From positions 45,994 through 77,993 of the forward strand of contig JACPWU010000024.1 in the NCBI GenBank assembly GCA_016196885.1: 32,000 nt of DNA, written 5' to 3'. The DNA comes from Chlamydiota bacterium. GTDB lineage: Bacteria; Auribacterota; JACPWU01. A program made the position numbers and the translations under genes. Positions within the stretch are counted from its first letter, which is position 1. Each line of letters starts with the position of its first letter. The notes under the pieces are model-generated. The model made no database searches. It was given only the letters and a program-made list of their open reading frames with translations, and was not told the origin of the DNA. Of this stretch, positions 7,128 through 10,058 are shown piece by piece.

Positions 7128-7242
7128 GAGAACGGCCGTTCGTCTCTCGTCAAGGGCGGGCCTCCACTTCGATTCCCCTATAGCTTTTGAGTGCCATGAG
7201 CTCTTAAGGTTTTTAGGTGGTTTAAGAATGATAAGGGAAAAG

Positions 7243-7316
7243 TGCCAGGGGGGGGAGTCGAACCCTCGACCTAGGCCTTATGAGAGCCCCGCTCTAGCCA
7301 TCTGAGCTACCCTGGC
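7243..7316 (-). tRNA. tRNA with CAU anticodon and a paired 1:72, so elongator tRNA-Met or tRNA-Ile2 (the lysidine substrate)
   Basis: Reverse strand reads GCCAGGG TA GCTC AGATGGCTA GAGC G GGGCT CTCATAA GGCCT AGGTC GAGGG TTCGACT CCCCC CCCTGGC A. The acceptor stem is perfect, there is one A:C mismatch in the T stem, and no CCA is encoded. Confidence 0.85.
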
Positions 7317-7326
7317 TTAAAAAGAA

Positions 7327-7421
7327 GGGTTTAGGGTATAGGGTTTAGGGTATAGGGCATAAGGAATTTGATTAAATAAAATCCTTATTTCCCTAAGCCC
7401 TACACCCTATACCCTAAACCC
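7327..7421. repeat. Long hairpin built from GGGTTTA/GGGTATA heptamers (array C) between the two tRNA genes
   Basis: GGGTTTAGGGTATAGGGTTTAGGGTATAGGGCATAAGGA (7327-7365) pairs with TCCTTATTTCCCTAAGCCCTACACCCTATACCCTAAACCC (7382-7421). Confidence 0.85.
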
Positions 7422-7473
7422 TGTTTTAAAAATTAGCGGGGGTTGGATTTGAACCAACGACCTTCGGGTTATG

Positions 7474-8127
7474 CATACCACTACAGCTTTCGCTGCGTCT
7501 CTCAGAGAATTTCTGAGAGCTTTGTGGTCTGGACTTTCTCTTCACCCTTTCTACAAAATAGAGGAGGGTGCCTGCCGTCAAGTCTCTACGCCTTCTCCGA
7601 CGCATGTCAGAGCTTGGTTCGGGATTACCCCGCACGTGGCTTCCCCGAGTTTGACAGGTGATCTCAGATAAATTTCTTTATCTGAAGCCCACTGAAAAAT
7701 AAGATTCCAAGCATCGCGATAGTTTGCGGAACTAGGTTTTCGCTGTCGCTTGTTCGTTTCGACCATGTGAATTTCACTACCATAGTCGATGAATACGGCT
7801 ATAGGAAAGACATAAAACAAATTAAGGTCAGCCAAAAAAACCAGGGCGAAATCAAAATCTACAGCCTGATAAGGCTGCCTCAACATGACCCTACGATTTG
7901 TTTTCGTTCGGCGATTATCGACTACATAATTCCCAGAAGGTTTATCAAACCATGCTGTTTTGACCTGAATCTTGACTAAAGTTTCCTCTATGTCAAAGAC
8001 AAGATCATATGGAAGCCGATCGCCAACGGGTTTCAGAACACCCCAACCACGCTTCAGTGCTTCGAGTGTGGCTGCTTGTTCTGCAATGTCTCCCTTTAGC
8101 TTGGTACTCAAATGAATCTCTTTCTTG
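7474..8127 (-). mobile_element. Group I (IC3-like) self-splicing intron with an endonuclease ORF in the P1 loop
   Basis: The 5' exon ends in U and the intron ends in G. Core strings GTCAAACTCGGGGAAGCC and GAAGGCGTAGAGACTTGACGGCAG (core at 7573-7589) match the Azoarcus/Anabaena tRNA intron cores from memory. Candidate guide GTGGGCTT (7692->7685) pairs with GGGCT|CA. P2 hairpin is TCAGATAAAGAAATTTATCTGA. Confidence 0.8.
7578..8111 (-). CDS. Intron-encoded PD-(D/E)XK homing endonuclease (I-Ssp6803I-like)
   Basis: 177 aa with a TTG start 7 nt after AAAGAG. KGDIAEQAATLEALKRGWGVLKPVGDRLPYDLVFD...LVKIQVKT fits a PD...(E/Q)xK nuclease core. The last ~35 codons read through the ribozyme core. Confidence 0.7.
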   Translation of the reverse strand: MSTKLKGDIAEQAATLEALKRGWGVLKPVGDRLPYDLVFDIEETLVKIQVKTAWFDKPSGNYVVDNRRTKTNRRVMLRQPYQAVDFDFALVFLADLNLFYVFPIAVFIDYGSEIHMVETNKRQRKPSSANYRDAWNLIFQWASDKEIYLRSPVKLGEATCGVIPNQALTCVGEGVET

Positions 8128-8220
8128 AGCCCGACGAGCTACCAGGCTGCTCTACCCCGCAGTATGTAAATCGCACATACTATATCCTAGGATATGTGCA
8201 AACTCCAGATTTTTTTGTGA

Positions 8221-8565
8221 TTATTTTTTTTTAGGAGATTCAGAAGATTCGGGGGCAGGCTCTTCGCAATAAAGAAGCCGGCTACAGTGTTCACAGACGT
8301 GGAAGGATTTCCCTGCCTTTGCGACAATGGAGGTGCCCGAAGCGGCGGCGAGAAAACAGCCTTGACAGACTCCATTCACAAGTCGGACAATCGCATTTTT
8401 ATAGCGCTTCTTTGCACGATCATAGGAGCGGATAAGTTCCATGGGGATCCCCATGCGATTGTTGGCCAACTCTTGAATCAATTCCAGATGGAAGGCCTTG
8501 GCCTCTTTGCGCAGGGCCTCTTCGATTTCTTGTATTCTCAGAAGAGATTTTACTTTTGAACTCAT
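8221..8565 (-). CDS. Zinc-ribbon (C4) domain protein with an N-terminal coiled coil, hypothetical
   Basis: 114 aa with CQGC...x21...CEHC pairs. Confidence 0.65.
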   Translation of the reverse strand: MSSKVKSLLRIQEIEEALRKEAKAFHLELIQELANNRMGIPMELIRSYDRAKKRYKNAIVRLVNGVCQGCFLAAASGTSIVAKAGKSFHVCEHCSRLLYCEEPAPESSESPKKK

Positions 8566-8603
8566 CGGGGAATACTATAATGAGATTAAGACAAGAGATC
8601 AAG

Positions 8604-10058
8604 ATGAAAGCGTTCGTTTCTGTGGTTAAAAAAATTTTAGGGGTCATTGGTCAATATCATCTTCTTTCAAAAAAAGATAGAGTTCTCATTGCTGTTTCGG
8701 GTGGAACGGATTCCATGGCACTTCTTCATGTTTTGTTGGAATTAAGAGAAATTTTTGAATTAGAACTGGCGGTAGCCCATTTGAACCATCATCTACGTGA
8801 GCATGCCTCCCTTGATTTAGAATTTGTTCGGCGTGAAGCAGAAATGCTCAAGCTTCCTTTTTATGGGGGAAGTGAAGATGTGAAATTAATTTCTAAGAAT
8901 GAGGGTCTGTCCCCGGAAGAAGCGGCTCGAAAGGTTCGTTATGAATTTTTGAAAAAGGCGGCTTCTTCTTTTGGGGCTCAGAAAATTGCGGTGGCTCATA
9001 CCCAAAATGATCAGGCAGAGACGCTTCTCTTGAGAATGGTCAAGGGAACAGGGGGAGAAGGTTTGAGGGGAATGAGGTTTTCTCGGCCGCTTGATTCTTA
9101 CATTTTAATTCGTCCTTTGCTCGATATTTCTAAAAAGGAATTGAAAAATTTTCTCCAGAAAAAAAATATTTCTTGGCGAGAAGATGAAAGCAATCAGGAA
9201 ATGGCATTCTTGAGAAATAAAATTCGGCACTCTTTGATGCCGTTTCTTGAAAAGGAATTTAATCCGGTCATGGTTGAGAGTCTTTGTCGTTTGGCATCGA
9301 TTTTGGACGAAGAAAATGAATTCTTAAATAGAGCCCTTGAGAAGGTTTTTTTGAAATGTAAAAAAAATGAGAGCGGATTATCTTTAGATCTAAAATTTTT
9401 TCTCTCACTAGAGATGGCGCTTCAACGCCGGTTGATTCGAAAACTGTTTTGGCAGTTTTCATTAGGCAAAGATTTGTCTTATACCTTGGTTGAAGAAATC
9501 CTGTCTTTTTTGAAAAATGCCCAGTCAGGGAAAAAATGGGATTTGCTTGAAGATGTGGAATTAAGAATTGAATTTGATCGTTTCTGGATAGGGCCGATTC
9601 ATTGTAAACAAACGTTTAGCTTTGAGAAAATCAGAGTACCAGGAGAAATTTCTTGGGAGATGGGGACTTGGTCTTTCAAGATGGTCGCTCAATTATCTTC
9701 CCAGCTTCACAATCAAGAAAAGAAAAATTTCCCTGAAATTTATAAGAATCTGTCTGAACGTAAACCGATAGAGCTGGTTGAATATTTTGACGCAGCGCAA
9801 GTGGGCCCAGAAATTCAGATTCGATCTTTTGAACCCGGGGATGTTTATGACCCTATTGGACTCCATGGCTTTAAAAAGCTGAAAAAGATTTTCATTGATG
9901 AAAAAATTCCTTTGCGGGATCGTCTCCAAATCCCCCTTTTTCTTTCTCGAGGCAAGATTTTTTGGCTGACGGGCTACCGTATCTCAGAGTCTTTTAAAGT
10001 CGGATCCAATCAGAACGCTATTTTAAAGATTTCTTTGGAGATAAAGAAGGGCTGCTGA
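8604..10058 (+). CDS. tilS: tRNA(Ile)-lysidine synthase
   Basis: PP-loop VLIAVSGGTDSMALLHVL, then AVAHLNHHLR and VAHTQNDQAETLLLR. The start is uncertain (8556, 8580 or 8604); 8604 avoids overlap with the divergent gene. Confidence 0.9.
   Translation: MKAFVSVVKKILGVIGQYHLLSKKDRVLIAVSGGTDSMALLHVLLELREIFELELAVAHLNHHLREHASLDLEFVRREAEMLKLPFYGGSEDVKLISKNEGLSPEEAARKVRYEFLKKAASSFGAQKIAVAHTQNDQAETLLLRMVKGTGGEGLRGMRFSRPLDSYILIRPLLDISKKELKNFLQKKNISWREDESNQEMAFLRNKIRHSLMPFLEKEFNPVMVESLCRLASILDEENEFLNRALEKVFLKCKKNESGLSLDLKFFLSLEMALQRRLIRKLFWQFSLGKDLSYTLVEEILSFLKNAQSGKKWDLLEDVELRIEFDRFWIGPIHCKQTFSFEKIRVPGEISWEMGTWSFKMVAQLSSQLHNQEKKNFPEIYKNLSERKPIELVEYFDAAQVGPEIQIRSFEPGDVYDPIGLHGFKKLKKIFIDEKIPLRDRLQIPLFLSRGKIFWLTGYRISESFKVGSNQNAILKISLEIKKGC

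Follow-up and report, generated by a model that had tools for sequence, protein, structure and literature searches.

The 32-kb stretch of DNA considered here (the window, to which all positions refer) lies in contig JACPWU010000024.1 of a groundwater metagenome-assembled genome (MAG), labeled Chlamydiota by the NCBI. Its minus strand carries an initiator tRNA (tRNA-fMet) gene interrupted by a group I intron, and the P1 loop of this intron contains an open reading frame (ORF) for a homing endonuclease of the I-Ssp6803I family (Table 1). The gene was read on the minus strand, with inspection of the sequence of positions 7300-8300, and compared with related loci from other bacteria. Several features of the locus had been proposed in a preliminary description of this DNA.

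A split initiator tRNA gene with an intron-encoded endonuclease

The two halves that had been proposed to form one 74-nt tRNA(CAU) were recovered at the same coordinates, and ARAGORN folds the joined 74-mer into a tRNA-Met(CAU) cloverleaf. The CCA end is not encoded in the 3' exon. Bacterial initiator tRNAs are recognizable by their CAU anticodon, three G-C pairs at 29-31:39-41 (GGG/CCC), the lack of a Watson-Crick pair at 1:72 (the usual mismatch being C1.A72), and an A11:U24 pair. The spliced tRNA displays all of these features, by direct reading as well as in the ARAGORN fold, with a U1.U72 mismatch and the GGG/CCC run at the base of the anticodon stem, in agreement with the initiator identity suggested at the outset.

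Run with its intron option on the genomic DNA, ARAGORN gives identical outer bounds and a 654-nt intron. It places this intron at the canonical (eukaryote-style) 37/38 position and miscalls the anticodon as CAA, the placement being ambiguous because a CA dinucleotide is repeated on both sides of the junction. This solution was rejected, as only U33|C34 yields a U before the intron and a terminal omega-G. Related loci were collected by an endonuclease scan of one genome per GTDB species, yielding 227 stretches with relatives, and locus comparisons were made on the best 80. A split tRNA-fMet is found in 77 of these 80, and all 77 introns are preceded by U and terminated by G, which upholds the U33|C34 insertion first deduced from the same two bases. 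Default ARAGORN (without introns) and Rfam at its gathering score call neither the split gene nor the intron, and report only a tRNA(CAU) at 7242-7316. This silence is a threshold and design limitation, rather than evidence against the element. Standard annotation thus misses the split gene, so the MAG would seem to lack an initiator tRNA.

At permissive thresholds, the Rfam covariance model Intron_gpI is matched over its whole length (model positions 1-253/253), with 49.4 bits and an E-value of 2.7e-11, for a curated gathering score of 50. The guide pairing with GGGCT|CA expected from the preliminary description corresponds to helix P1, in which GGGCU|CA pairs with UGGGCUU and a U.G wobble marks the splice site. 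This wobble is present in 69/69 related introns, and the central GCU|CA/UGGGC pairs are present in 66-69 of the 69, depending on the pair. P1 is prolonged by a 12-position stem with a single mismatch, and an equivalent stem occurs in 46 ORF-containing relatives, with differing sequences and a mean duplex energy of -15.6 kcal/mol (-9.5 for shuffles). The P1 extension is, therefore, conserved as a pairing rather than as a sequence.

The ribozyme fold was approached in two ways. A P1-P9 structure was drawn manually on the window copy, guided by the structure-annotated seed alignment of Williams 2020, and projected on 69 unique related introns. Across these, 90.1% of the cells are canonically paired, compared to 37-45% in controls with the 3' partners shifted by 1-2 nt. 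Of the 68 pairs, 38 show compensatory double changes, including the P7 pseudoknot, the terminal pair of which is UA in 38 introns, GC in 25, and CG in 5. RNAalifold, applied to 50 cores without the manual structure, recovered P2, P3, P4, P5, P6, P6a, P8, P9, P9a, and P9b, with compensatory changes at 37 of the 50 predicted pairs. The core strings, likened earlier to those of the Azoarcus and Anabaena introns, proved near-identical to the fMet.2Ug and other IC3 seeds in the Williams 2020 alignment.

The ORF begins 16 nt past the 5' splice site. It is a P1-loop insertion, as had been suggested, since it is enclosed by the P1-extension stem that the relatives also possess. Its residues 2-145 match the I-Ssp6803I structure (PDB 2OST) with an E-value of 1.6e-63, and the Pfam family PF11645 (PDDEXK_5) is matched at 171.2 bits (cut-off 26.1) over profile positions 1-137/138, which establishes the family proposed for the protein. 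Among other resources, no NCBIfam model was found for the ORF, and PHROGs offered a match to an unannotated family only. The P-Y-D-L-V and I-Q-V-K motifs are both present, their YDL and QVK cores being at least 95% conserved in 81 family members. Every residue with at least 95% conservation in the family is kept in the window ORF, including the D and QxK residues, which presumably have the catalytic role attributed to them in the 2OST literature.

The reading of the frame through the ribozyme core, also noticed early, amounts to an overlap of 130 nt that stretches from the P1-extension 3' strand as far as P7. Ribozyme sequence of P2-P7 supplies the last ~32 codons, and the P7 5' strand has the UGA stop at its 3' end. 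ORF lengths of the relatives fall into two classes, 149-150 aa (like I-Ssp6803I) and 170-185 aa (like the window). Among the 47 examined relatives that contain an ORF (48 loci with the window), 26 have the long form. Given these two classes, the 32-residue C-terminal tail would be explained more simply as a frame kept open through conserved RNA than as a functional protein extension. Across loci L002-L079, the ORFs of 149-150 aa end near P1'/P2 and those of 170-185 aa run through the core to P7/J7-3, with the UGGGC guide inside the reading frame in both classes.

Table 1. Features of the split tRNA-fMet gene, its intron, and the intron ORF (positions in the window)
Feature	Position	Strand	Description
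tRNA-fMet 5' exon	8161->8128	-	tRNA positions 1-33, last base U33; 34 nt, TGCGGGGTAGAGCAGCCTGGTAGCTCGTCGGGCT; from the sequence and ARAGORN on spliced and genomic sequence
tRNA-fMet 3' exon	7473->7434	-	C34 to discriminator A73; 40 nt, CATAACCCGAAGGTCGTTGGTTCAAATCCAACCCCCGCTA; from the sequence and ARAGORN
Group I intron, IC3-type	7474..8127	-	654 nt; first base C after U-1 (8128), last base omega-G (7474)
P1 5' strand	8126..8132	-	GGGCU|CA across the 5' splice site; pairs with 7685-7691
Internal guide sequence (P1 3' strand)	7685..7691	-	UGGGCUU; inside the ORF, codons Q-W-A; matches the P1 columns in the Williams seed alignment
P1-extension 5' strand	8114..8125	-	AGAAAGAGAUUC; directly upstream of the TTG start; 8125->8114 pairs with 7707->7696
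P1-extension 3' strand	7696..7707	-	GAAUCUUAUUUU; within the 3' part of the ORF
Homing endonuclease ORF, I-Ssp6803I family	7578..8111	-	177 aa, TTG start; nuclease at residues ~1-145
Ribozyme core	7474..7683	-	Manual structure on 69 sequences, RNAalifold on 50, Rfam alignment
P2	7666-7683	-	Core helix
P3	7653-7658 with 7571-7576	-	Core helix
P4	7644-7648 with 7619-7623	-	Core helix
P6a	7595-7612	-	Core helix
P7	7580-7586 with 7531-7536	-	Core helix
P8	7543-7570	-	Core helix
P9	7524-7528 with 7477-7481	-	Core helix
P9a	7499-7519	-	Core helix
P9b	7483-7496	-	Core helix
Rfam RF00028 Intron_gpI match	7711->7520	-	Extent at permissive thresholds

A non-cyanobacterial host and a broad distribution

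The protein encoded by the ORF is found, in identical form, in two NCBI assemblies, GCA_016178005.1 (77.7-kb contig JACOUD010000058.1) and another carrying MBI3266346.1, both labeled Chlamydiae/Chlamydiota bacterium. A comparison for the neighborhood is provided by locus L034, from a Candidatus Auribacterota MAG, Auribacterota being a member of the Planctomycetes-Verrucomicrobia-Chlamydiae (PVC) group. Window and L034 have in common a block formed by TilS, a Zn-ribbon protein, tRNA-fMet, tRNA-Met, and a family 2 glycosyltransferase (GT2). Identity reaches 43% for TilS, 76% for the Zn-ribbon protein, and 56% for GT2; the downstream tRNA-Met is present in both, and identity is 100% for the tRNA-fMet exons (72 nt compared) and 72% for the introns. 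Because the flanks and the tRNA exons match this MAG, the host is, on sequence comparison, a PVC-group bacterium and not a cyanobacterium. The preliminary description had made a wider distribution of the intron/endonuclease pair depend on this placement.

The relatives are labeled as members of over a dozen phyla: Nitrospirota, Chloroflexota (Ktedonobacteria, Anaerolineae, Caldilineaceae, Chloroflexia), Acidobacteriota, Methylomirabilota, Planctomycetota, Bacteroidota/Rhodothermota, Pseudomonadota, Desulfobulbaceae, Actinomycetota, Armatimonadota, Auribacterota, candidate phyla radiation (CPR) groups, and numerous cyanobacteria. In the protein database, 1,966 clusters are present at E <= 1e-20. 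The 77 loci comprise 39 distinct tRNA exon pairs, with at least 24 compensated variants of the T stem, and 52 of the 77 loci have an identical 23-bp target. The guanine-plus-cytosine (GC) content of the endonuclease follows that of its flanks (rho 0.79, p 3e-11, n=47); in the window, the ORF has a GC content of 0.43 for 0.44 in the host, and the intron equals its flanks. Host-specific exons, the agreement between endonuclease and flank GC, and the length of many of the contigs argue that the relatives are true residents of diverse hosts, rather than stray cyanobacterial DNA. The phylum count is nevertheless an upper bound, since some MAG labels look unreliable. For example, the 'Patescibacteria' locus L009 agrees with Methylomirabilota contigs (L011/L024) at 99-100% identity in the tRNA-fMet exons and 91-94% in the introns, the 'Proteobacteria' locus L018 matches Ktedonobacteria (L019/L028/L029), and the 'Acetobacteraceae' locus L047 carries a Nostoc-type locus. 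No relative was found in the viral_contigs and plasmids collections, and sequenced phages yielded no close relative, only distant PDDEXK_5 proteins with 30-39% identity.

Two Acidobacteriota/Blastocatellia loci (L065 and L069) have U instead of C as the first intron base (TAAC...). In L069, the endonuclease frame is broken, with a longest ORF of 33 aa from the usual start, and looks like a decaying copy.

A different arrangement is seen in 30 loci, mostly from Nostocales and other filamentous cyanobacteria (L012, L027, L031, L035, L037, L039-L043, L045, L047, L048, L050, L051, L055, L056, L060-L063, L066, L067, L071, L072, L074-L077, and L081). Here, the intron that interrupts tRNA-fMet, again at U33|C34, is devoid of ORF (242-311 nt), and an I-Ssp6803I homologue, 72-79% identical to that of the window, is free-standing on the same strand. 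It is intact (153-228 aa) in 29 of the 30 loci and truncated in L067. Its distance downstream from the tRNA is 56-142 nt, except in four loci, where it is 240-863 nt; in L041, for instance, the tRNA occupies 2104-2421 and the endonuclease ORF 2462-2959. This organization resembles 'collaborative homing', a term reportedly used in work on cyanophage psbA for a free-standing endonuclease beside an ORF-less intron. A search of the available literature found no paper describing such a pair for tRNA-fMet.

Other genes of the window include hemA, hemB, cobA/hemD, aroA, and one for an ammonium transporter. The TilS (tRNA-Ile lysidine synthase) gene (8556-10058, plus strand) lies ~400 nt upstream of the initiator gene, on the opposite strand. 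The tRNA at 7242-7316 (minus strand), 117 nt downstream of the split gene, is the sole other tRNA of the window; since its 1:72 positions are paired and the GGG/CCC run is absent, it is not an initiator. It is named tRNA-Met by its CAU anticodon alone, a lysidine-modified tRNA-Ile2 being equally possible. Between the two tRNA genes lies a near-perfect hairpin of 97 nt (7326-7422), with a (GGGTWTA)n arm and a (CCCTAWA)n arm, a folding energy of -62.3 kcal/mol (z = -9.6 vs shuffles), and a heptamer motif found nowhere else in the window. It may represent a small repeat element, or else a structure in which processing or termination takes place between tRNA-fMet and the tRNA downstream of it. Rfam matches to plant and animal microRNAs at 7321-7426 are spurious and were discarded, as they are produced by this long hairpin.

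Proposed mechanism and alternative explanations

The locus very probably represents a mobile intron of group I, belonging to the classical tRNA-fMet type (IC3, 'fMet.2Ug') and inserted between U33 and C34 in a PVC-group host. By analogy with the characterized Synechocystis element, self-splicing, endonuclease activity, homing, and a dependence of translation initiation on splicing would all be expected. The gene would be transcribed as a 728-nt precursor, in which the intron would fold as a P1-P9 ribozyme, with P1 presenting the U33.G wobble to attack by an exogenous guanosine. The omega-G (7474) would then dock, and exon ligation would release the 74-nt initiator tRNA, with the CCA added later. 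The P1-loop ORF would be translated into an I-Ssp6803I-type PD-(D/E)XK homing endonuclease, able to cut tRNA-fMet genes without an intron in the anticodon-arm sequence GCTCGTCGGGCT|CATAACCCGAA, which is near-invariant, and repair from the intron-containing copy would insert the intron. The joined exons of the window recreate this sequence, identical to that of cyanobacterial hosts, and the predicted intron-less target of the window endonuclease is GCTCGTCGGGCTCATAACCCGAAGG. As the target is nearly identical across Bacteria, the same element could settle in very different phyla.

A broader proposal, which is put forward tentatively and may turn out either way, with the chances slightly tilted against it, is that the intron and its I-Ssp6803I-type endonuclease constitute a pan-bacterial mobile element, moved repeatedly between phyla via the near-invariant initiator anticodon arm. 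If so, its hosts would include PVC bacteria, Nitrospirota, Chloroflexota, Acidobacteriota, Planctomycetota, Bacteroidota, Pseudomonadota, Methylomirabilota, and possibly CPR; the only initiator tRNA of lineages like the window host would need self-splicing; and the arrangement of filamentous cyanobacteria would represent a natural intermediate in the coming together, or parting, of intron and endonuclease.

Several observations weigh against reading the locus as a functional mobile intron in its host. The Rfam score falls 0.6 bit below the gathering threshold, though the E-value is clear. The window copy has an A.G mismatch in P5 and an A.C mismatch in P6, neither of which is unusual in the family, and a promoter scan of the minus strand upstream of the gene found no sigma-70-like site. 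Moreover, the genome is a MAG, of which one contig was inspected, and some MAG taxon labels among the relatives are probably wrong. This last point could suggest a binning or assembly artefact, in which a cyanobacterial locus would have been mis-assigned to a PVC-group MAG, the labels of L009, L018, and L047 being examples of possible errors of this kind. Such an artefact is, nevertheless, scarcely credible here: the 77.7-kb contig around the locus was recovered twice, an independent Auribacterota MAG has matching tRNA exons and matching genes on both flanks, and the intron has the same GC content as its flanks. The T stem is, furthermore, GTTGG/CCAAC in the window and not the AGTGG/CCACT of the Nostocales type.

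If the locus is a genuine part of its host, its splicing could still be dispensable, should a second, intron-less tRNA-fMet gene supply initiation from elsewhere in the genome. Many bacteria do possess several initiator tRNA genes, and the examined sequence is one 77.7-kb contig of the MAG. However, no intron-less copy would escape conversion by an active endonuclease, the only other tRNA(CAU) of the window is not an initiator, and exons and ribozyme are both intact and conserved; group I introns have also left 36 genomes with a gene for fMet or Ile2 tRNA that is apparently 'missing' (PMC8450103). A second initiator gene is thus quite improbable. More weight can be given to a domesticated or decaying relic, whose ribozyme would still splice as the tRNA requires, with an endonuclease that is no longer mobile or active. 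This fate is predicted by the life cycle of homing endonucleases after fixation in a population, and a long residence, rather than a recent arrival, fits an intron only 72% identical to that of L034 despite identical tRNA exons, as well as an ORF with a host-like GC content. The TTG start, with the region upstream of it sequestered in the P1 extension, points the same way. Yet the ORF is intact over its full length, with a strong 2OST match and all of the highly conserved residues, including the catalytic D and QxK, whereas decayed copies elsewhere, such as L069 and L067, are visibly truncated. A relic is, therefore, unlikely, and a mobile intron with a putatively active endonuclease is the preferred reading of the locus.

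Comparison with known systems

The endonuclease family is described as essentially cyanobacterial in a published review (PMC3384342). Nonetheless, the preprint of Williams 2020 (bioRxiv 10.1101/2020.01.27.920355) lists fMet.2Ug among four classical bacterial tRNA intron classes, and tabulates these classes by phylum over 80,413 genomes. The tRNAscan-SE 2.0 paper attributes the 'missing' tRNA genes of the 36 genomes mentioned above to group I introns (PMC8450103), and, at the NCBI, relatives from MAGs of Nitrospiria, Sulfuricaulis, and Patescibacteria already bear the name 'group I intron-associated PD-(D/E)XK endonuclease'. An explicit peer-reviewed account of the non-cyanobacterial distribution was not found in the literature searched, the phylum table of Williams 2020 being outside the comparison. 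The suggestion that the pair has a wider distribution than described, thus, stands in part: the host is indeed not cyanobacterial, but the class had been surveyed by phylum in the 2020 preprint, and relatives had been named in databases. Elements of this kind are known, with a breadth that databases imply, while the host lineage is unreported.

The locus reveals no new mechanism. It offers a clean example of a selfish element in a highly conserved essential gene, far from the lineage where this element was characterized. With host-specific exons around one conserved target, such loci could serve the study of cross-phylum homing and of sequence sharing between ORF and ribozyme.

The best-characterized counterpart is the 655-nt tRNA-fMet intron of Synechocystis sp. 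PCC 6803, with its 150-codon ORF for I-Ssp6803I (PMC1995217; GenBank U10482, PDB 2OST; Biniszkiewicz et al. 1994 and Bonocora & Shub 2001, as relayed by PMC1995217 and PMC3984707). Gene, insertion site, ORF position, and target around the insertion are the same, and the window intron is only one nucleotide shorter. The differences reside in the PVC-group MAG host, the U1.U72 mismatch of the window tRNA, and the length of the ORF, which has 177 codons because its frame runs on through P2-P6 to a stop at P7.

Among the seeds of Williams 2020, Tpc1.fMet.2Ug shares with the window the U-1 after loop position 2, the omega-G, and the GCUCA/UGGGC pairing of P1. The P3-P4 string CCUGUCAAACUCGGGGAAGCC is identical in both and the P7/P3' segment near-identical, whereas this seed is short and without ORF, unlike the window intron with its endonuclease ORF in the P1 loop. 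The IC3 introns of Azoarcus tRNA-Ile2 and Anabaena/Nostoc tRNA-Leu(UAA) have the same subgroup architecture and the core motifs AAAUUCGGGGAA and GUAGAGACUAGACGG, but they interrupt other tRNAs at other anticodon-loop positions (Ile2.5Ug and Leu.3Ug), and their seed copies carry no endonuclease ORF. Finally, the ORF-less introns found in filamentous cyanobacteria (loci L027-L081, from Nostoc, Calothrix, Scytonema, Cylindrospermum, and other genera) occupy the same site as the window intron and have the same ribozyme core, with shared covariation; they differ by having only a short hairpin in the P1 loop and the endonuclease as a separate gene, where the window has its ORF in the P1 loop.

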